A stretch of DNA of 43,582 nucleotides from Basidiobolus ranarum (taxonomy: Eukaryota): positions 1-43,582 of the forward strand of contig JASJQH010006907.1 in assembly GCA_040143965.1 (NCBI GenBank), written 5' to 3'. This document shows, piece by piece, positions 10,989 through 42,024 of the stretch; within the stretch, counting starts at the first letter, position 1, and each line of letters begins with the position of its first letter. The notes beneath the pieces are model-generated. The model saw only the letters and a program-made list of their open reading frames with translations, was not told the DNA's origin and searched no databases. A program made the position numbers and the translations under genes.

Positions 10989-13900
10989 CTAACGTTTCTC
11001 TTTTACAAATAGCTGAAGACATATAAACGAAAGGATAATAAAAATGCAGAACATCATCGAAAGCTTTACAACGTCTGACCAATAATTGGCCGCGTTAAAT
11101 CCAAACGTAGATAGAATGGTGGCTCCGGGGATGTCAATCTGTAGGCCATACTTTTTCTCAGTTAATTGAAGATATTTCATCTCATTGACAAGCATGGCTT
11201 CTAATGCGTAATTGAAAAATGACAGGTCCTTCAACCACCTCAAGTATGGTGGAATAGAATCCTTATTCAAAAGCAATCCACCGAATAACATACTAAAGAG
11301 CATCATAAGACTGCTCAATAGGTTGGCTACCGAGATTTCCGGGAATACAATCCCTAAGAAAAGTGAGATACTGGCAGCGGTCAAGTTGAATAAAACAAGA
11401 CCCACCAGAAATCTGCGGAAATGCTCAAATCCTGGTGCCAATCCACCCATGTTGTATATAATCACTCCTAGCAAAATCGGCGGGATAACACGTAATGGGA
11501 CAATATCAAACATGACCTTGGAGGCAAAATAAGTTATAGGGGAGTAATAGCCATTGGCACGTTCTCTTACAAACAAGACTCTCTCGCTAGCGAATACTTG
11601 TAACGAGGTAAGGCATCCAAATCCAAACAAAGCACACACGAAGAAAAAGACACCCATCCGATTTTGAAATCCAGCAATATCGTTGGTAACTTGATAGAAC
11701 AAGAGACCACATAACACAGCCAAGAAAACGCTGATCACATAATGCGTTAACATAAGGTACGGGTTTCTATACAGGTTTTTGAACGTACGATCAGACAAAA
11801 TCCGATATTGTGTATACCATGAGGAACGTCGATATGTCCCCATATTGGGTACTGGTGCGCCGTCGATTTGATTTGACCCGACTATTCTCTCAATCTCATC
11901 TACAACACCATGCGCCAAAACGCTACGTTTGTACTCTCTCACTAACATCAGTAAATGGCTGGACATTCCTTCGATTGTCTCGGAACTTCTGGAGGAAGTG
12001 GTGGAACTACGATTACCACCAGTCCAGGGACTTACTTCAGTTTGCCATGGGTTGTTGACTTCAGGCGGTGTCGAAATAATAGGAGGTAGATCATCGAAGG
12101 GATTAGTAGAGGATGTTCGATGAGGAGAATATAAAGAGTCTTCTTGCATAACACGAATAGAGCGCCTATGGTTGTTTTGAGAGGTATCTACTTCACCCGC
12201 ATTGTTGGAATTGGACAATCCAGGAATGAGCTCTTCGTCATCTTCAAAATCCTCTTCTGATGGTTTCACCGCATGCTTACTCAAGTCAACCACAAAATCA
12301 GCAATGTTAAAGCCGAGGGGACAAGGATGGCCGATACTCTCAAAATGGGAACGGACCTTAGAAGCCATGCCAGAGTAAATCATCCACCCATCAGCCAAGA
12401 GAACTAACTGATCAAACAAGGTGAAGATATTGCTACGTGGTTGATGAATGGTAAAGATCACTGTTCTGTTGTAGTTGCGAGCCAAGGTGACAAGGCATTC
12501 AATAACATTATACGCATTATAAGCATCCAAGCCAGAAGTAGGTTCATCAAGGAAAAGAATAGACGGGGATGTAACAAGTTCACATGCAATAGAGACACGA
12601 CGTTTTTCACCACCGGAAATACCACGTGAACTCGAATCTCCAATGAAGCTATCCTTAATTCCCAAAATACCTAACTCGGACATGGTTTGATGCACACGAT
12701 GCTTTTTAGCCTCCGACGACATGCTACGTGGGAGTCGCAATAGGGCAGAGTAAAGTATGGTTTCATATACCGTTAACGTAGGCATTAGCGTATCCTCTTG
12801 ATCAACATAGCCAACAACTCGCTTAAACTGAGAATCACTGATAGTGCTTCCGTTAACAAAAATATCACCAGTAACCAATCCAGATTTATTCTTACGAGCG
12901 AGAATATCCAAGAACGTTGTCTTTCCAGCGCCTGTTAAAAATTGAGTTTGATATGTATTAGGTACTAATTGACTGAAGACCGTTTCTTTTATAGTAAAAC
13001 TTACCAGAAGCACCCATGATGGCCATCACTTGACCAGGCTTTACGATGCCGTGCACATTATTTAAAACCTGCTTCTTTCCAACAACGTAATTCACCCCTC
13101 TAAACATCAATGTCGTAGGTGTGTGATTATCCATTAGTTTACCGGCTTCATCATCTGGATTGTACTGATCAAGAGGTAAATAATCGCTAGGGGCTTTCTT
13201 GTTCTTTCGGACAAGATAGATGCCACCTAAATCCTAACTAGTAAGCATATACGAAATGAAATAAATATCCAGCAACAATCGCATACCAGTACCAACTCCA
13301 AGGATGAACATTAACACAGAGACGATGGAAATTATCATGAGAGATGTATTCTTGGGCTTTTCAGGTCTCTGCATGAGAGTTTAGATGAATGATTTTGGTC
13401 AGAAGAGTAGGGTAAAGGGAGTGGAGACACCCACTTACAATGTATCCAGGGACTTGAGTGTAATGTAGGCATTCTCCAGAGTGGCAATTCAAAGTAATGT
13501 AAGAATCTCCAAAAACCGACAAGATCAAGTCGTTCATGGCAGGTTCTAACAAACACTATACTGAGCATGATGACTACAATTGTGAGATGCTGTTTGATTG
13601 GTTTACCTTCAAACTTACACCCATCTTCGGTGTTACATTTGAAAGAGGCAGGCCCCTCTATTTCCTCTTCCAAAAACTCAGAAATGTCTATATGAAGTAA
13701 CGAGTCATATATGGACTCAGTATAAACGTTCTTTCTTCCATATGCTTATCATATACATACCGATGGATCCTTCTTTGCCGCAAAGCATTTCATCGGCCAT
13801 GCACTTGCAACGAATGTTAGGGCAAGTGTAGTATGTGGCATTTCCGTTGTAACTCCTATCTAAAATTGGAGTGTTTTACGGGTTAATCAACGGAATAATG

Positions 13901-20412: not shown

Positions 20413-21981
20413 CTAAACGCTCAGAATGGCCTCAGTCTTTGATTTAAGTTGCTCTTGATAAGGAGCAAGTGCTGGTTCAACACATTTAACTAAGAAGCTG
20501 TCAACTTGCTCAGGTGCACGGCCGATAAATGTAGAAGGATCTAAGAGTTTCTCCAAGTCTTGCCAGATGGGTTCGAAATATTTGGTGGACTTGACCCTTT
20601 CGATCAGATCATTGCTTCCACCTTCTACCTTGACTCTATGTGCGGCTTGGTGTGAGAGAACACGAATTTCTTCGTGACACACCTGTCTATCTCCACCTTT
20701 CTTGACCATTGCCATGATAATATTCTCGGTAGCCATGAATGGTAGTTCTTGATTGATACGTTGCTTGATAACAGCTGGATAAACAACCATACCATCGAAA
20801 ACGTTTTGAAGAATAGTAAGAAGAATATCAGCAGTTAAGTATGCCTCAGGGATACTGATACGACGAATGGCACTATCATCGAGGGTTCTTTCTAACCATT
20901 GAACACTTGAAGTTGCCAAAGCATCTTGTACCAAGATCATCAAATGTCTAGAAAGAGAGCAAATACGTTCACATCTCATAGGGTTTCTCTTGTATGCCAT
21001 TGCTGAAGAACCAATCTGATCCTTCTCGAAGGGCTCTTCAATCTCTTTCAAATTAGCCAACAGTCTAATATCAGTAGCAATCTTATGAGCGGTAGCACCG
21101 AAAGAAGAAAGAGGTCCTAGAACATCATTATCAACTTTACGAGAGTATGTTTGACCAGTAACAGCATAAGGAGTTGAAAATCCTGAAAGTTCGGTTACAA
21201 GCTGATCCAGTTCCTCTACTTTATCGTGATCACCATCGAATAAAGTCAAGAAAGAAGCCTGGGTACCGGTAGTTCCTTTGACGCCTCTGAATTGAAGATC
21301 ATCACGAGCACGAGTAAGGTTACGTAAATCCCAAAGTAATTCCTTTGTTAAAACGACGATTTAGTATAAAGAGAAATACATGGAATCATATAAATATATA
21401 TATACATACCTGAAGCCAGAGAGTAGCTCTCTTACCAACGGTGGTGAGTTGAGCAGGTTGGAAGTGAGTGAAGCCCAAGGTAGGAAGATCACGATATTCC
21501 TTGGCGAATTTGGCAAGTGAATCGATAACACAGGAAAGCTTGTTCAACAAAATGTCTAAACCGTCACGAAGATTTATAAGATCTCCGTTATCAGTTACAT
21601 AACAAGAGGTAGCACCAAGATGAATAATGGGAGCTGCTTTAGGACAGAGAAGACCGAAAGTATGAACGTGAGCCATGACATCGTGACGACGTTTCTTCTC
21701 CTCAGCAGCAGCCACTTCGTAATCAATATCGTACTAAAAAAATAGTAAGTAAGCTACTAAAAGGCAAAATATAATGAAATACCGTGTACCAAGTGCTGGC
21801 GCATCTCCTCTAAGGCTTCCTCGGAGATGTCCTTCAAGCCAAGTTGTCTTTCGGCAGTAGCAAGGTTGAGCCAGAGTTTACGCCAGTTGCTAAATCTCTT
21901 ATCATCGGAGAAGTTATAGGCCATCTCCTTGGAGGCATAACGAGAAGTCAGAGGACTTTGGTACTTGGCATGAGATTCCAT
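20413..21981 (-). CDS. ADE13: Adenylosuccinate lyase, 3 exons
   Basis: Exons 21981-21790, 21733-21410 and 21342-20413. Motifs [33 protein letters not shown] and the [11 protein letters not shown] fumarate-lyase signature. Confidence 0.97.
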
Positions 21982-27873: not shown

Positions 27874-28356
<483 letters not shown>

Positions 28357-30632: not shown

Positions 30633-33169
30633 ATGAGTAGCAAACACGCGCCAGGCACAATTGTTTGGGCAAAGATCAAAGGGTATCCTTGGTGGCCTGC
30701 TAAAGTACGTGTTTATAACATTAATATATCAATCTCCAACTTCTTGTTGAGAATACCTCCTAGTAACAAGAGTTGTTCAATAAACGCGATACTCGAGTTG
30801 GGATTTTATATATTTATATCATTACTACTATCTAGATCAAGAAGGAGGAGGAAGTCCCCGCCGCTGTCCTCAAACAAAAGCCTAGTAGACCTGTCCCTAT
30901 TATATCAGTAAAATTTTTCGGTACCAAAGATTAGTAAGTACTTTTCCTGCTTTCATAACTAATAGTTTTATATCTTGTTGACGCGTTTCTATTAATTTTG
31001 AAATAGTGGTTGGATTAGTTCAGATAACCTCAAGCCTTTTGAAGAACATCTCCAAGAATTCAATAAAGGTAGACGAGGTGTTCAATTTGATAGAGCGGTC
31101 AAAGAGGCCTCTGATCCTGATGCTCAGGCCTCCGCTTCGGAGGAGGAAATGAACGAAGTAGAAGAGGATGAGTTGGTTAGCGAGGAAGAGGAGCCTCCAA
31201 AAAAGACACCAAAGCGAGGTGGACGTAAGAAAGCTGAGCCTCGTAGAAAGAGTCGGAGTAAAGCTGACTCGGACGATGCTTCAGAAAGTGAGCCAGAGAA
31301 AGAAAAGAAAGTCAAAAAAACACCCAGTAGAAGAGCTTCTTCAGGAAGACGCTCATCAAGAATTAAGCAAGTGGAGGAGGATGAAGAAGAAGAGGAAGAG
31401 CCTGAACAGCGTCCTAATACTCGCAAGAGAAAATCTCCTCCCGTTGAAGAGTCTACGCCAAAAAGAAGAAGAACCTCACGTAAGGACAAGACAGCTGAAG
31501 AGCCAGTTGAGGCCAAGGAAGAGGAGCAGGAGCCTTCTACCCCACAACGTGCTAAACAAAAGTCCAAGCCTCGTTAGTTGAATTTTTATCTCACTTTGGT
31601 TGTGCTATGTTTTAATTCTGAGAGATATTTAGGGTCTCCTAGTGAAAAGCTCATGTATCTTCGTCATAAGTTGCAGAAATTGACCATGAAGGACGTCGTC
31701 GGGGTTGGTTTTCTGACTGTTAATAATTGTGGTATTATATGATTATTTATCTCTCAAACTGCATTTAGGATATGAACACAATAGATTCCCTTATGAAGGA
31801 GGTGGAGACTTTCGATATGAACCTTTCCCTCTTGAGAGTAAGTGCTAGAGATATGTTTGGTATTCAAGAGATGATCTAACTTGGATTTATATATATTTCT
31901 CAGGAAACAAAGATTGGCAAATTAATGAAGCGAGTCTCTCAGCTTGATTTAGACGATGACCCCTTTGATATTAGAGATAGAGCCTACACACTTACAAAGA
32001 AATGGAGATCACTACTCATTGAGGATGTTCTTTCAGACAAACAGCAAGCTAACGAAGATGAAAGTGAAAAGCCTGATGATGACGCTGATGCTGACACCAT
32101 TCCTATGGATGTTGATGTAGAAGAGTCTAAAATAGAAAATGACCAAGCGAAAGAAAATGACGATAGTGGCTCTGAAGCAGAGACAGAAATCGAACAGCAA
32201 CTCAGCTCTGGTAGTCCGGATGAAGACGAAGATAAAGAGCAAGCATCTGATATTGAAGGGGAAGTCATCCAAGATGTGCCTAAAAACACCGACACTGAGC
32301 ACGGAGTCGAAGTAGGCGAGAAGGAGGCTACTGCTGAAAAGATGGAATCTGTTGCTAAGCCTGAAGCCACTACTCAGTCTGCTGTCTCAGAGACCGATGA
32401 ATCTGTATCTAAATCAGATGTAATTAAGGATATTATACCTGAATCTGAGAGTAAGGAAGAATCCCAAGTTGCCGATGACAATACTGAATTACCCTCCAAT
32501 GGTAAAAGTGAAGAGCAAAGTAATGTTGACGTAGCTCAACCCGAACAAAACAACAATGACGAAGTAGTCACTCAAATGGAAGTAGAACCAAGTCTTGTAC
32601 AAGCCGATGTTAAGGATGAACCAAAGCAGTTAGAGAAAGCTGATTCTTCTGAGACAAAGAATCAAATGAAAGTAGAACCAAGTCCCGTACAAGCCGATGT
32701 TAAGGATGAACCAAAGCAGCTAGAGGAAGCTGATTCTTCGGAGGCAAAGACCCAAACTTCAGAGAATCAAGTGGAGTCCAACGAAGACTCTAAGCATCAT
32801 GTTGCAAATGGTGAGCTTGAGGATACTAAAGAACTTAATGAAACAGTATCTCTACAAGATCCTATATCCGAAAAAGACACAACCAAGGATCCAATCGAGG
32901 GTGAGCCAGAGAAACCAGAAAGTATTTCACATTCGGAACAGAAAGAGGCCTCTGAATCAAAATCTGAGGAAAATATACCAAAATTGGAAGATAGCACCCA
33001 AGTAGTGGAGGAAACAAAACTTGAGTCTTCAGAGGGTCAGGAGGCAACGGAAACCCAGGTTGAGCCTTCTGTGACTCATATTGTAGAAGAAACCCCCAAG
33101 TCTTCGGACGTCCATAATGAAGAACTCAAGGAGCTAGAGCCTAAAGAAAATGGACAAAAGACTGATTAA
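30633..33169 (+). CDS. PWWP-domain chromatin protein with TFIIS-N/IBD-like helical domain and long acidic tail (Pdp3/LEDGF-like), about 6 exons
   Basis: VWAKIKGYPWWPAK...VKFFGTKDYGW, then a basic/acidic linker, LMYLRHKLQK...LRETKIGKLMKRV...IRDRAYTLTKKWRSLL, and a long Glu/Asp-rich tail. Confidence 0.88.
32573..32752 (+). repeat. In-frame 90-bp (30-aa) tandem duplication in the PWWP acidic tail
   Basis: QMEVEPSLVQADVKDEPKQLEKADSSETKN / QMKVEPSPVQADVKDEPKQLEEADSSEAKT. The two DNA copies start at 32573 and 32663 and are nearly identical. Confidence 0.95.
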
Positions 33170-33948: not shown

Positions 33949-36900
33949 ATGCACAAGATAGATGCACCTAAACGCGCCTTTTACTTATAAGTATTTTAAA
34001 AGTATTTGTCAAGCGACAAATTTAGAGAAAAATTTACTTATTTCATCTTTCTTATTTTGTTCGGATTTATACAAATCATCAAAAATTCGTACTTGACATC
34101 GACATCAAGGGAAGAACTTTAAGGGTAGATATATTTCCGCTACATTATATGACCTTGAAGCATTTAGTAGAACCCACCACTATATTTCTCTATGATTATT
34201 TATCATTCTATTCTATTTTCCATTATTTGTAGGGCTTTACTGAGCTTCATATAATCCCAACTACAAATTCCTTGTCACACGTGCGCATCAATGCACGGCA
34301 TTGTGGTATCCTTTTGATTTCTTTTAGCATTTCACAACCTTTCCTTTTACAACGCGTAATATTTAAACTCCTTAACGCGTATCTCTGAGATATACATAAT
34401 GTCACGGTCAATGGAATTGCAACTTCTCACGAATACATCGATATTATCAAAAATTCACTGCTGCCTGAGGTCACAAAGGATAAAAACATATTCCAATATC
34501 ACGAATTGAAGCGAAGCTATCACACAGCATTATACGAGGCTGAGGAAGGGGAGCTGTTAATACATATTCCCGAAGTGATAGATATCGTACAGGTAAAGTT
34601 TACACATTATTTCTTTTACCTAAATTCAACCTTCTTTTGTCCTATATTTTCATTGTTTATTAAATCTACTAAATTGTAGTTCCAAGAAAATGAAGCACCA
34701 TTACTTGATGATTCTAACGAAGGTAAAGTTTCATTATTGCATGAAGTATCCAAAGTTGTGGATATATATACAGTGATCGCTAACGACTCCAAACCTTATG
34801 GTTTTGCTACAGCATACAACGCAATGTTCGAGGGACGAGTCATGTTCACCCCGCTGGTCATCCGTATAGACTTCGCAGTGGTAAACCCCAAGGCTGGCGT
34901 CAACTTCATACTACCTGATCCTCAAGTAAACCCTTATGTAAGTAAAAGCAATTCACTCCGTTAGTGCTTTAGAGGTTATAGCGTCTTAACAAAACTTTAA
35001 TATAGCGATTTCCGCACGTTTATACGTGTAATGAAACGTTTCCTGGCCAAGTGCGTCTTTGGTTGCCTTGTATCGACCGAATGCACGAACGCTGCACTTG
35101 GGAGATGGAGTATATTGTGGATCAAACGCTACAGGATTCCAGCGGTGATAACGTAACGGAAGAAGAAGAGGCTCTGGAGATGGTGGTAGTCAGTAGCGGT
35201 GAATTGATCGAACAGGTATTTTTTTCTGAATCTATCTAAAAAATATTGACTCCCAATGACACTTGTATCGTAATTAGACTTCTCATCCGATTGAGCCCAC
35301 TAAGAAAATATTCCATTACATCCTTGCAATACCATCACCAGCATTTTCTATATCTTTTGCTGCTGGTCCGTTTGAAGTTGTCAAGTTGAGCTCTTCTGAT
35401 GGTCAGGTAGAAAAGAGTTCAGAGGATGCTGGTGGTAAAAGTACTAGTGAGATCTTTATGAATACTGATGACAGTGAAGGAACCAGTGGAATGTTTGCAT
35501 TCTGCCTTCCAGGTTGGATCGATGAGACTGCGAACTCTTGTGAGTTTTTAAACAAGGTAACATAGCCTAGTCTTATGAAAAATATCAAAACCTTTTCTCA
35601 TTTGGATTTGTTTAGGCTTTGGAATTCTATGCTCAAGAACTCGGATCATATCCATATTCATCATTCAAGCTAGTGTTTGTCGAAGATGCGCCAGATATAA
35701 TGATGTACAGTGCTACTATGACTATAGCCAGGTATTTTATCACAATTGTGCGCCTAACTTCAAATAACCGTAGTATACTGATTCGAATGCTTATAATTTT
35801 AGTACGCACCTCTTGCACGGAGACGATATTATCGACCAAACGTACGAGACCCGAAGACACCTAAGCTTAGCACTAGCAAAGCAATGGTTCGGTATTCACG
35901 TGGTTCCAAAATATGGGTAAGTTAAATCCACTCATGGTTGATCCTTTGCGAAAACTAACATGCTTCCTTTTTGCATAACATTAGTGCTGATTTATGGTTG
36001 ACCGTTGGATTAGCTAATTATGCTACAAGCTTGCTCATTAAGCATTTGCACGGTAATAACGAATACAGGTTTCGAATGAAAAAGGTAACTACAGTTTCAA
36101 CTCTATATTTGCGATGTGGTGCTAACTTTTGATATTTTATGACAGGATATTGATAAAGTTTGCGAGCTGGATGTTGATCGCCCTCCTCTTTACAATGTCA
36201 ACCTTGCCTATCCCGTCGATCCAGATGACTATAACTTTATGCAGTTGAAAGCTCCCCTTGTGCTGTTTGTACTAGGGAAGAGAATGATGAAGGGTGGTCC
36301 CTCTCTTGGAATACACCGGGCTATTCCCAAGGTCCTTGTAGCTGCGATGAGTGGCGAGCTAGGAAGTGGCAATGCACTTAGTACAAATTGGTTTCTAAAA
36401 GTGTGCCGAAAAGTCAGTGGAGTGGATAATAAACCGTTTGCAGAGCAATGGATATATCCTTTTTGTGTATTTTAATTTTGGTTTTGAGATACGATCTGAA
36501 TTCTGCTTTACATTGCCATCTAATTTCTAAATATTTCCTTAACATATTAATACCTTTGGCAGCGGATGTCCGATATTTCATTTTACATATTCGTTTAATC
36601 GAAAGAAGATGGTAGTAGAGATCAACATGGAGCAAAGGTCTACTAACTCAAACGGATTAGCACACAAACATAGCGAACGTGCAATGTATCCAAGTACGAA
36701 TATGTTCACGGTAAGTTTATGCATGCTATTTGTATGCCCACGACGTATGTCGGTTGTTAAATTACAAATACACAGGGACACATGACTGCTCTCATTCGAG
36801 AAGCTGACGGAACTCCTTACGAACATGTGTTGGATATACAAGACTTGAACAAAAAGTATGAGGTGCAATTCAACACTAAGTATAAGCGTATCAGAAGGTT

Positions 36901-39900
36901 AACAAAGCGCTTCCAGCAGCGTCAGGCAGCAGCGGCCGCGGCCGAGGCTAGTGTTGGTGCTGAGGAGATGCCAGAGGCAGTTATGGATGACCTGGAAGAT
37001 GTTTTTGGGTATGGTATGGATGAGAAAGAAAAGGAAGAGTGGAGAGTTGTAGAATGGGGAGAAGTTGATGAAGAGAGTACCGCAAGGTAGAGTTGTTATA
37101 TTTTAAATAACCATTTGAAAGCAAACATTAATAATGGTAACTGATATAGTGGTACGTTTGAATGGATTCGACTTGATTCTGATCTTGAGTGGATTTGCGT
37201 TATGCAATTTGAACAACCTGATTACATGTGGGCTTGTCAACTGTTAAATGATCGTGATGTTGTGGCTCAGATCGAGGCAATTGAAGCTCTCTCGAATTGT
37301 CCATCACCTGCCACTTCTACGTCATTAATGAGAACTATGATGGACCCCAAGTGTTTCTACCGAATTCGTATGGAAGGCGCATTTGCACTCGCAAAATGTG
37401 CTATTCCACAGCTAGACTGGATTGGTTTACATCACCTTTTCAAAATATTTCAAAAAAGATACTGTTATGCTTCCACCACTTCCGATGGTGACGGCGAGAT
37501 TGCTATAGTTCCAAAGCCAAACAATTTTTCAGTGTTTACTGAGTACTTTGTTCAAAAGGCTATCGTTGCCGCTTTTTCGACTGTGAAAAATTCTAAAGGC
37601 CATACTCCGATCAAAATCAAACAGTTTCTTCTAGAGCTTCTTCGGTACAACGACAACACTGGGAACCACTTTTCTGACAACTATTATATTAGTGCGTTAA
37701 TCAACGCTCTAGGAAATGCGCTTATTCCTAACGAGAGGTCCAACCAAAGCGAACAAGAGGGTGAGAAAGAACTGTTTGCTGACGCCGTCCAGGAGATAGA
37801 ACGCTATCGAACACTGGATTATTTGGTTCCATCTTATCACAATACTGTGACTATAAGCGTACTGCAAGTAATGATGAAGCTTATGATGGCTAATCTTCTT
37901 GCCCCGAATTTGAAGCTGTTCTTAGGATATACCAGATATGGTAACTTTATGCGGGTACGACTAGTTGCGTTCGAAGCACTATTGCTTTTAGATGGTCTTC
38001 GTAATGGCTCGATTGGGCAGTATATTTTTCAAGTTATTGCTCTCGATCCTTGCCACTATGTCCGCTATTATTTAGCCAAGTGCTTATCTGAAATGTTAGG
38101 TGTTCATATTGCTCGTGCCAGCTCCACCGAACATGATACTACGGAAGAGATGGTTTTCGAGGAGGTAGGTCAGCCAAAAGTCATTCCAGAGAAGACCTCT
38201 GAAGAGGAATTTATTCATACTCCCGGCTTAGAAGCAATTCATAAAGAATTTTCGGGTAGAGAGGATCTTCAAGCACAAGTCTGGGAGATCTTGACATCTA
38301 ACCCTGAGCAGGACTATCGCGTGTTTCGTTATATGTTTCTTTTTTGTGAGTTGCTCTACAAGCCTATCGATACAATACCTAAATTGAAGATAAAGATGCC
38401 TGTAGTGGCACCCTCGGAGTCTCGAATTGACACGCCTTTAAGGACGTCTAGTAAAACTGCGGAGGCTAACAAGCCAACTGAAAAAGCAGATCCAGTCACA
38501 TCTATTCGAAAAGAGAGTACAAAGGCCAGCCATGACATCCCTATGATAAGTGCTCAGGAAGACGAAGATATTGAAATTGAAGCAGGAACTGTACCTTCCT
38601 CGACAAAACCAACTTCTACAACCACTAGCAAGGAGGACAAAAAAACCAAAGTTGTCAGCACCCCCAAAAATCGTAAAGAATCTAAAACATCGGAATCTCG
38701 TAAAGAGTCGCGTGACAAAGATTCAGAGAGACCGTACAAGAGTGAGCCGGTTGTGCCGGACGTTTTAGTTAAGATAGAGCCTGATGAAGTAAGTACATCC
38801 ACTCCTGTTGCAGCCACGACGCCTACCCATAAGGCTAAACTGCCATCGAGACAAACACCACAGCCTAATCTGACCATACCGGTACAAGATCAGCTAAGGC
38901 CGGAAGAGATGAAGGTTTGCAAACGGATCCTCCGAAAGATGATGGCTCATAAGTCTGCTTTTTACTTCCTTCAGCCTGTGGATCCAATTAGAGATGGGTG
39001 CCCTACATATTTTGATTTAATCAAGCATCCCATGGATCTGGGCACTGTTAAACTGAAGCTTGACGAGGGCAATTATCACAACCTGAAAGAGTTTGAGGAT
39101 GATGTGAGATTGATGCTGAATAACTGTTTTGTCTTTAACCCGGTCGGATCTTATGTTTACAATGAGGGCCAAGAGCTGGAAAGTGTTTTCGAGAAGGAAT
39201 GGAGTGAACAGAATGCGCAGAAACTCGTTGGTCGAGAGCCAGAGTTTAATATGACTATTGTGGAGTCTCCCGTCACCAAATCTAAACCTTTGCCATCGGA
39301 AAAATCAGATGTCGAGTCAGAGCCACCAAAGAATGAGGTCGAGAAATCCTCCAAGAATCTCACGCCTGAGCTTCACAAATGTAGAAGCATCTTGAAGAGG
39401 ATTGCACAACATGAATCTGCATTTGAGTTTTTAAGGCCTGTGGATCCTATCAAGCAAGGGATTCCTACGTATTTTGAAATGATCAAGAGTCCCATGGACC
39501 TTGGCACTGTCAATAAGAAATTGAAATCTGGCCAGTACCAAACAAAGGATGATTTCCGTGAAGATGTTGAGCTTATGCTTAACAACTGCTTTACCTTCAA
39601 CACTCCTGGTACTTTTGTGTACGACCAAGCAAAAAGTCTCAGTGAAGTATTTCAGCGAGAATGGGAGAATCAATTCGGAACCCGGACGGTATCTGACTCG
39701 GTGGAGCCTACTCATGCCCCAGTTAAAGTCGAGCCTATATCAGAGCCGAGTGTTCCTATCATACCTGACTCGTCTAGAAAACCAAAAATGGACATACCAG
39801 AGCCTGCTACTGTTGTGAAAATCGCAAAACCCTCTGTCGAGAAGGACCCGAAGGAAGTGACATCTATCGGATTCACCAAGCCGGCTCCAGCGATTGCAAC

Positions 39901-42024
39901 CCCGAGACCACCGTCACCGATGGTTCGAGCCCAGCCTCCTAACTCAAGCAGAGAAAGCAGTGGTATACCAACACCCAAGGCTGCTACTTCAGTAAAAAAC
40001 TCTCGAAAATCTTTGACACCCAAGCCATCTCAGAGTCCTGTACGCAGCAATGCTTCTCCAGTCACCAAAATTACTGGGAAAGCAACAAATGCCATGGATG
40101 ATGTTACCTATAAACGTTGCCAAAGAATACTCAAGAAGTTATGGTCGAACCCCTCCTCCGAACCGTTCCAATTGCCAGTTGACCCTATTGCTTTGAAGAT
40201 CCCAACCTATACGGATATCGTTAAAGAGCCTATGGATCTGAAGACAGTCAAAGAAAAATTAGACCGAGATGATTACATTTCTATCCGAGATTTTGAAAAA
40301 GATATTCGCCAGGTATTCTTCAATTGTTTCTTATTCAATCAGCCTGGTACTTGGGTATTTGAAGAAGGGAAGAAGATGGAGGCCTACTTCTACGAGCTTT
40401 TGGATCGCGATAAGCCTAGACGTCCCATATTATCTGAAGACAAGCAAAACTTATTAAAACTGATTCAGAAAATGACCAAAAGTAAGCATTCGTCGTTATT
40501 CCGAGAACCGGTTGATTGGGTGACATTACAGATTCCAGATTATCCGCGAATTATTCGACAGCCTATGGACCTACGAACCATAAAGGACAAGCTAGAGAAC
40601 GATCAATACCGAACCTGGGTAGATTTCGAAAGAGATATTCGTTTGATATTCAACAACTGCTTTACTTTCAATCCTTCTGGGACGTATGCTCATGAAGAAT
40701 GCCAGCACTTGGAGAACTATTTCTTTGAACGTTATCAGGAAATCAAGAGCACTTTGAAAGTCATTCCTGACGTTTCAAGGACTCCGTCTAGAGAACCTAG
40801 CATCAAGAGAGAGCCCGAGCCGGTGAGCATGACTCCCGAGCAATTGAAATTATGTGAGAAAATATACAAAAAAGTAAGCGGTAACAAAAATGCCGCTGCT
40901 TTCCTGGAACCGGTAAGTTATTCAATTCCTTTTTTTATATATCAGATTTATTAACAGACAACTTATCTCCAATGAAGGTTGATCCAGTTGCAATGGGCAT
41001 TCCGCACTACTTTGATGTAGTCCGTAATCCAATGGATTTCAGTACAGTTCATAAAAAGCTCAAGGCTGGAGAATATTCTATTCCAGGTGAGTTTGAGGCT
41101 GATGTGCGTCAGATATTCAAAAACTGTGCTACATTCAATGGCCCAGAACACTATTATACACAACAGGCGATGTTGCTCGATAAGATTTTGGACAAGGAAA
41201 TGCTCGCTTTCCAAAATCCGAAGTATTTAGGTAAACAAAATGGAGGCAGCGGTAGTAGAAAATCCAGCAAGCAGCCAAAAAAAGAAACTGTAGTACCCAT
41301 GGCTGCCCCGATTGCTTCTCCTATTCAAAGCTCAAGAGTGTCGGTTCCGTCTAGTCCTAAGACTCTGGATAGATCGGCACTTAAAGCATGTGAAAGTGTA
41401 CTGGCGCGAATCAAGTCACATCCCGCCTTCGAACCTTTCCGGGCTCCTGTGGATATTAAAGCCTTGGGTATTCCACATTACTACAAGGTTGTGAAACATC
41501 CCATGGATTTTGGCACGATCGAAAACAAACTTCGAAGTGGAAAATACCAGAGCATCGAACAATTCGTAGCCGACTCTCAATTAGTATTTGAGAATTGCTA
41601 CGCTTTTAACATTCCAGGTGATTCCGTCTATGTAATGGGACAGGAATTACAAAGATCATTTGAGAAAGCTTGTAAAAAGTACGGCTTACTAGACACTATT
41701 GAGAAGGCAACTCCTGAGCGGAGTGCAGTAAAGCGTGTACATCCTGAAGATTCTGAGCAATCCGAGGTACATATCTTACTAACCCATATTAATAATTATA
41801 TCGCATAAATATTGACAATATTTACCTAGCGCCATGGCACTCACGAGCGAAAGCGTAAGAAGGATAGAAAGGAGAAAAGAAAGCACAAGCACAGTAGTCA
41901 TCGGGAGGATGATGACAGGCCAGGCACTGAAGAGCACTTCTCCGATTCAGAGAATAGTCGTGCATCAGCATCACGAACCTCACCTCAGCCCCAAGTCCGT
42001 CTAAAGATCAAGTTAAAGCACTGA
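33949..42024 (+). CDS. TAF2: TFIID subunit 2 fused to six C-terminal bromodomains, about 17 exons, about 2,290 aa
   Basis: Aminopeptidase-like TAF2 core (HQKFVLDID, GFTEL, WLPCID, QWFG, LKAPLVL, QWIFGSGCP, IREADGTPYEH, EWIRLD, DRDVVAQIEAI, RYNDNTGNHFSDNYY). It continues in the same exon into bromodomains with F.xPVD...Y...PMD...NCxxFN, six in total. A Lys/His-rich tail ends VRLKIKLKH*. Confidence 0.93.
33987..34072 (+). other. TAF2 intron 1: probable AT-AC intron with U2-like donor ATAAGT
   Basis: TTTTACTT|ataagtat...gatttatac|AAATCATCAAAAA gives MHKIDAPKRAFYL-NHQKF. There is no GT between ATG 33949 and the in-frame TAA. Confidence 0.65.
34306..34389 (+). other. U12-type (minor spliceosome) GT-AG intron in TAF2
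   Basis: Donor GTATCCTTT, branch TCCTTAAC at 34369-34376, 13 nt to the end of the acceptor. Splicing restores RINARHC-DIHNVTVNG. Confidence 0.93.
36454..36553 (+). other. U12-type (minor spliceosome) AT-AC intron in TAF2
   Basis: Donor ATATCCTTT, branch TTCCTTAAC at 36535-36543, acceptor TAC. Splicing restores the conserved EQWI-FGSGCP. Confidence 0.95.

Follow-up and report, generated by a model that had tools for sequence, protein, structure and literature searches.

The TAF2 gene of the fungus Basidiobolus ranarum contains two introns, the third and the twelfth, that are in all likelihood (a probability of about 0.93) real substrates of the U12-dependent (minor) spliceosome. The gene lies in a contig of 43,582 nt, which was analysed over its whole length and is referred to here as the window. 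Sequence, reading frame and conservation of the two introns were read directly from the DNA; that they are spliced, and by which spliceosome, we infer from these. A third unusual intron, the first of the gene, has AT-AC ends and the look of a major-type intron. One gene would display three known fates of unusual introns: for intron 12 an AT-AC/GT-AG subtype switch relative to human, for intron 3 a minor-to-major conversion when set beside other fungi, and for intron 1 a major-type AT-AC intron of great age. The relevant features, together with the other genes of the window, are as follows; the second copy mentioned is a second TAF2 gene on another contig.

33949..42024, forward strand: TAF2 gene, 17 exons, 2,304 aa, with an open frame once its 16 introns are removed
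33987..34072, forward strand: intron 1, AT-AC, donor ATAAGT, no U12 branch motif, phase 2, codon 13, kept in the second copy
34125..34232, forward strand: intron 2, ordinary GT-AG, phase 0, at a position common to the fungal loci L038, L042, L056 and L078 and the animal-like locus L086
34306..34389, forward strand: intron 3, putative U12-type GT-AG, 84 nt, phase 1, codon 55, kept in the second copy
34369..34376, forward strand: U12 branch motif TCCTTAAC of intron 3, invariant in the second copy
36454..36553, forward strand: intron 12, putative U12-type AT-AC, 100 nt, phase 2, codon 567, right after a conserved Trp, kept in the second copy
36536..36543, forward strand: U12 branch motif TCCTTAAC of intron 12, invariant in the second copy
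10992..13025, reverse strand: ABCG-type transporter
20416..21360, reverse strand: adenylosuccinate lyase
27874..28353, forward strand: tandem ubiquitin gene

The predicted product joins an aminopeptidase-like TFIID subunit to six bromodomain matches. Its identity as TAF2, already proposed in a preliminary description of this DNA, is borne out by Pfam matches to TPR_TAF2_C (E 8e-64) and Bromodomain, by an aminopeptidase-like N-terminal part with Ig-like and TPR/HEAT domains, and by orthology to known TAF2 proteins. The large TAF2 exon as query retrieved 117 homologues, many of them named TAF2 and the top two from B. ranarum itself; a close homologue (P0006) matches the human and yeast TAF2 chains in PDB, and the Calcarisporiella TAF2 is 43% identical to the model across ~1,600 aa. 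The six bromodomain matches (window 37150-41766) compare with two in this Calcarisporiella homologue. The deposited protein P0002 corresponds exactly to residues 783-2304 of the model; the first 782 are missing from it. The new model repairs a public gene model that is without the first third of TAF2, and it indicates the same error in related fungi. It had been anticipated that standard predictors would mis-model the AT-AC junction; the truncated protein agrees with mis-modelling, but the AT-AC intron is not established as its cause.

Introns were called U12-type on a donor RTATCCTT, a branch motif TCCTTRAC near the 3' end, and GT-AG or AT-AC ends that restore the conserved frame. Intron 3 opens with the donor GTATCCTT and ends in AG, with the branch A 14 nt from the end; intron 12 opens with ATATCCTT and ends in AC, with the branch A 11 nt from the end. 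Both donors read RTATCCTT in both gene copies, and both introns carry the branch motif and frame-restoring ends. The preliminary description had given exact coordinates for the two introns, together with full donor and branch motifs and a short branch-to-acceptor distance. Taken singly, the motifs are not above chance in the window, with 7 donors for 4.0 expected (12/100 shuffles reach this count) and 6 branch motifs for 2.9 expected (8/100). The full donor-branch-acceptor architecture occurs twice, both times in TAF2, for a shuffle mean of 0.008; among 500 approximate dinucleotide shuffles of the window, one match appeared in 4 and two in none. Seven other RTATCCTY sites of the window were rejected for want of a matching branch motif at the right spacing, bar one at 32826, which was also set aside as a weak antisense case inside an open frame.

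Removal of introns 3 and 12 leaves junctions that align to the homologues without gaps within an open frame of 2,304 codons, so that, as had been claimed, both introns must be removed to rebuild the conserved TAF2 sequence. Retention of intron 3 brings a stop at codon 82 and retention of intron 12 a stop at codon 574, and TAF2 output would, as also proposed earlier, depend twice on the minor spliceosome. We considered whether the real mRNA uses nearby GT-AG sites instead, or whether, as the deposited model would have it, the 5' exons are non-functional or part of another unit. In the two gene copies the deposited proteins do begin only at model residues 783 and 622, and a few frame-keeping GT-AG or GC-AG alternatives exist near intron 3. 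These change the length by just 1-7 residues, so that the intron 3 junction rests on its motifs, its conservation and the gap-free match to homologues. At intron 12, each frame-keeping GT-AG or GC-AG alternative removes at least 6 residues, including a Trp that is present in 107 of the 110 homologues covering the region (the other 7 of the 117 are uncovered there or unmatched). Homologues run continuously through all modelled 5' exons, and in both copies these exons keep an open, conserved sequence. We regard this alternative as hardly credible.

The second TAF2 copy (L006, G000:C7309:8114-11586) is 80% identical in DNA and suggests a duplicated or hybrid genome. Both U12 donors are kept in it, as are the two branch motifs, whereas only 28 of 49 interior positions are identical in intron 3 and 40 of 65 in intron 12. 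Intron positions in the second copy match those of the window gene as far as the two align, and its intron 10 has a GC donor. The interior of intron 1 is identical at 42 of 51 positions, compared with mostly 40-67% in the other introns (intron 8, 19 of 24); this conservation may mark a regulatory element.

The genome of B. ranarum contains genes for minor-spliceosome components. Searches returned one match each for the four minor snRNAs: U11 (84.6 bits, Rfam cut-off 39) and U6atac (66.3 bits, cut-off 33) lie above threshold, U12 (49.4 bits, cut-off 53) and U4atac (46.6 bits, cut-off 53) below it, and functional elements are retained in all four. The minor-specific protein search, which covered CENATAC, PDCD7 and SCNM1, found three exon matches to the CENATAC family (best 43.4 bits), a PDCD7 match just at the cut-off (27 bits) and an SCNM1 zinc finger (44.9 bits). 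The earlier statement that this organism has a working minor spliceosome is thus upheld as far as its genes go, and that it works is deduced from them. Predicted duplexes between U11 and the two U12 donors have energies of -8.9 and -6.7 kcal/mol, compared with -0.3, -0.7 and -3.7 kcal/mol for three other donors including that of intron 1; by this computation the donors of introns 3 and 12 pair with U11. The branch-site complement is visible in the U12 match, and computed U12-branch duplex energies did not discriminate between the U12 introns (-7.7, -7.0) and ordinary introns (-9.0, -7.8, -6.0). U4atac and U6atac co-fold into stems I and II at -36.7, compared with -27.3 +/- 4.3 for shuffled sequences; the support from this co-folding is modest, because 25 of 1000 shuffles reached as low an energy.

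A strict U12 pattern gave 174 matches genome-wide and 24 in a reversed control, where alternative acceptors are counted separately and the figure is not an intron count. Among the matches listed, some contigs carry several (three on G000:C80), and G000:C118 (L012/L093) carries one strict match together with the PDCD7 match. A relaxed pattern with a five-base donor, aimed at deviating donors to which the variant U6atac described below might be suited, gave 147 matches compared with 64 in the control; it was swamped by repeats and revealed no second donor class. A dispersed repeat family on many contigs (for example L009, L017 and L021) contains TCCTTAAC and inflates loose U12 branch searches. 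In the U12 snRNA (L001:1501-1648; G000:C7055:8882-9029), a U replaces the A of the Rfam consensus just after the branch-pairing bases, and an A precedes TCCTTRAC in 65 of the 174 strict matches (3 of 24 in the control) and is absent from both TAF2 introns; the two features may reflect co-variation between snRNA and introns.

The single U6atac (L002:1501-1634; G000:C89:21836-21969) reads GUCGA where the Rfam consensus has AAGGA. The only U6atac found does not, then, carry the AAGGA box that pairs with the donor, which is a property of the snRNA and not of the introns, and it pairs poorly with the donors of introns 3 and 12 even though these are of the usual type. A pattern search of the genome for further U6atac copies found just this one; a second copy may have escaped the assembly, which is broken into 13,754 contigs. 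In several non-fungal lineages with minor introns, a 'CC variant' of U6atac, [GU]CCGA, replaces AAGGA and is called difficult to explain, and AAGGA is listed for the U6atac of Rhizopus and Phycomyces (Davila Lopez et al. 2008, PMC2396436). The idea that the motif of B. ranarum is novel was dropped on account of this published close variant.

These deviations bear on a second alternative, in which the junctions are right and one of the introns, or both, is taken out by the major spliceosome, their U12 motifs being remnants of a decaying minor machinery. U12 and U4atac below their cut-offs and a U6atac without AAGGA would fit such decay, and intron 1 provides, in the same gene, AT-AC ends with a major-type donor. 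Against this, the motifs of introns 3 and 12 are unchanged from one copy to the other even though the intron interiors have diverged to ~60% identity, the full U12 pattern is in large excess across the genome, and the pairing of U4atac with U6atac persists. In B. meristosporus, too, U12 and U4atac are reported below threshold (PMC11347168), and a U6atac without AAGGA is known from several lineages that have minor introns (PMC2396436). We consider removal by the major spliceosome very unlikely.

Under the preferred reading, that introns 3 and 12 are spliced by the minor spliceosome, U11 would pair with their donors and U12 with the branch site TCCTTAAC, after which U4atac would deliver U6atac. 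Failure to remove either intron would lead to an early stop, and full-length TAF2 would require two minor-spliceosome events. Both introns would be inherited relics: intron 12 would be orthologous to the minor intron of human TAF2, with a switch between the GT-AG and AT-AC subtypes, and intron 3 would survive as a U12 intron here, with conversion to major type or loss in other fungi. Intron 1, despite its AT-AC ends, would be removed by the major spliceosome.

Positional orthology of intron 12 to the human intron can be read directly from the alignment. The U12-type intron of human TAF2 (chr8:119788905-119789591, 687 nt, GT-AG; de Wolf et al. 2021, PMC8280824) lies in phase 2 within the aligned Val codon that follows the same Trp, as intron 12 does. 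It resembles intron 12 in codon, phase, U12 donor and branch motif, and differs in that the B. ranarum intron is AT-AC and 100 nt long. The human intron is retained more on depletion of CENATAC (delta PSI 0.107 at 24 h) and in ZRSR2-mutant samples (0.23) (PMC8280824). Because a human U12 intron occupies the same codon and phase, the site of intron 12 is, on this alignment, common to animals and this fungus, with a subtype switch that could have run in either direction. The comparison with animal and plant TAF2 called for in the preliminary description is positive for human; at the orthologous site, Table S8 of PMC11347168 scores Arabidopsis as 'major' and gives 'protein_ortholog' (no intron matched) for Drosophila and B. 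meristosporus (column 80). The missing B. meristosporus orthologue in that table may be due to mis-annotation or to loss. Searches for minor introns in plant TAF2, made by way of a single locus identifier, found none. We also collected 53 TAF2 loci from metagenomes; an intron at the intron 12 site was found in none of the 26 that were scored there. The three homologues of the 110 that lack the Trp are all from Zoopagomycota, two Syncephalis and one Thamnocephalis (P0081, P0091 and P0110). To judge from the proteins, the models of these two genera are probably damaged at the intron 12 junction by the same non-GT-AG intron, left unmodelled.

The site of intron 3 has a different record. Major-type introns at the same codon and phase occur in 6 of the 53 metagenome loci (4 distinct), with donor GTATGT in L042/L043, L056/L063 and L078 and GTACGT in L038; in at least 20 loci, the animal-like L081 and L086 among them, the coding sequence continues through the site without an intron. 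By best protein hits L042 and L056 are ascomycete-like, L078 is agaricomycete-like and L038 belongs to a fungus of uncertain group. Conversion is assumed, in a passage of a published paper, to run almost only from minor to major, and with this assumption the simplest reading would be that intron 3 is an old U12 intron, elsewhere converted to major type or lost; it is from this assumption that we infer the direction. Under the opposite origin, which concerns its history only, intron 3 would not descend from an ancestral U12 intron; it would have arisen, or taken on U12 type, within the Basidiobolus line, with a major-type intron at a fungal position as its source. This origin would account for the major-type donors of all six other fungal loci with an intron there (four distinct), for the two animal-like loci that cover the site without an intron, and for the listing of human TAF2 with one minor intron only. 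It would require conversion in the direction assumed hardly ever to occur, and two or three changes between GTATCC and the GTATGT or GTACGT donors; five of the six loci, besides, look like Dikarya, a group that lost minor splicing. The genomic sequence compared at this site comes from the metagenome loci. A late origin of U12 character seems to us unlikely, and the reading of intron 3 as an old U12 intron preferable.

Intron 1, a third non-canonical intron of the same gene, was overlooked in the preliminary description. Joining the gene start to exon 2 requires removal of 33987-34072; no frame-keeping GT-AG option exists, and the four weak GC-AG options would lengthen or shorten the protein by 8-20 residues. 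In the frame used for exon 1, 2 of the 3 differences between the gene copies are silent. With AT-AC ends, a U2-type donor and neither a U12 donor nor a U12 branch motif, intron 1 has the features of a U2-type AT-AC intron. Its codon could be scored in 36 of the 53 metagenome loci, 17 being left unscored. An ATAAGT...AC intron is present at codon 13, in the phase of intron 1, in 7 of the 36 (5 distinct: L038, L042/L043, L056/L063, L078 and the animal-like L081), among them loci with best hits to ascomycete and agaricomycete proteins; one locus (L086) has a GT-AG intron and 28 have none. The codon 13 intron of L078 bears a major-type TACTGAC branch motif. In L086 (2837-2903) the GT-AG intron stands, in an animal-like TAF2, at the codon where others have the AT-AC intron. 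A view of intron 1 as a recent intermediate between U12 and U2 types was rejected, given the same ATAAGT donor in animal-like and Dikarya-like loci. Persistence of the AT-AC ends need not mean selection, because the change from AT-AC to GT-AG takes two substitutions; L086 shows that it is possible.

A broader interpretation may be entertained, doubtful as it is: that the slow or otherwise unusual introns of TAF2 predate the split of animals and fungi and were selected as a throttle on the supply of TFIID, and that U6atac of B. ranarum gave up most of its donor pairing, with the hand-over resting on proteins such as SCNM1 or CENATAC. The same tentative reading would take in the persistence of the AT-AC ends of the first intron even in Dikarya, reported to have lost minor splicing, and the U12 introns, one of them shared with humans. 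If it were true, three intron types and the U6atac puzzle of 2008 could be tested together in one fungal gene.

Finding U12 introns in this fungus is less surprising than the preliminary description made it. In published work Basidiobolus has more minor introns than any other fungal group (PMC10639083, PMC11347168), with 249 minor introns (0.554%) reported for B. meristosporus by Larue & Roy (2023, PMC10639083) and 237 by Olthof et al. (2024, PMC11347168), and Dikarya are reported to have lost minor splicing (PMC10639083). Introns 3 and 12 are expected in a genus known to be rich in such introns, and the picture of which fungi have a minor spliceosome is unchanged by them. What this analysis adds is that intron 12 has a human orthologue, that the site of intron 3 bears a footprint of conversion, that a major-type AT-AC intron stands close by, and that U6atac is a variant. 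The main texts of PMC10639083 and PMC11347168 do not mention TAF2 (0 hits), and a literature search, with most subscription journals outside it, found no paper on these fungal TAF2 introns; the external minor-intron database of PMC10639083 may already list their B. meristosporus orthologues.

Among known systems, B. meristosporus is the closest: it shares with B. ranarum the genus, the intron class and the pattern of high U11 and U6atac with sub-threshold U12 and U4atac scores, and it differs in being another species with no intron recorded at the human TAF2 minor site in PMC11347168. Intron 1 finds its counterpart in a U2-type AT-AC intron that the TAF2 genes of human and Drosophila have in common and that belongs to a class of only 15 in human (Sheth et al. 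2006, PMC1557818). In human it is intron 1 and is unresponsive to CENATAC depletion (PMC8280824), an indirect sign of splicing by U1 and U2. Like that 'AT-AC II' intron, intron 1 of B. ranarum is the first of its gene, with AT-AC ends and a major-type donor; two animal-like metagenome loci share its codon, and the human intron is compared by type and rank only, not by exact codon. The U6atac of B. ranarum resembles the CC variant (PMC2396436) in having lost the motif for which pairing with the minor donor has been proposed, while the introns keep the usual donor. It differs in its motif, GUCGA, and in its host, and it adds a fungal case to a known and unexplained pattern.
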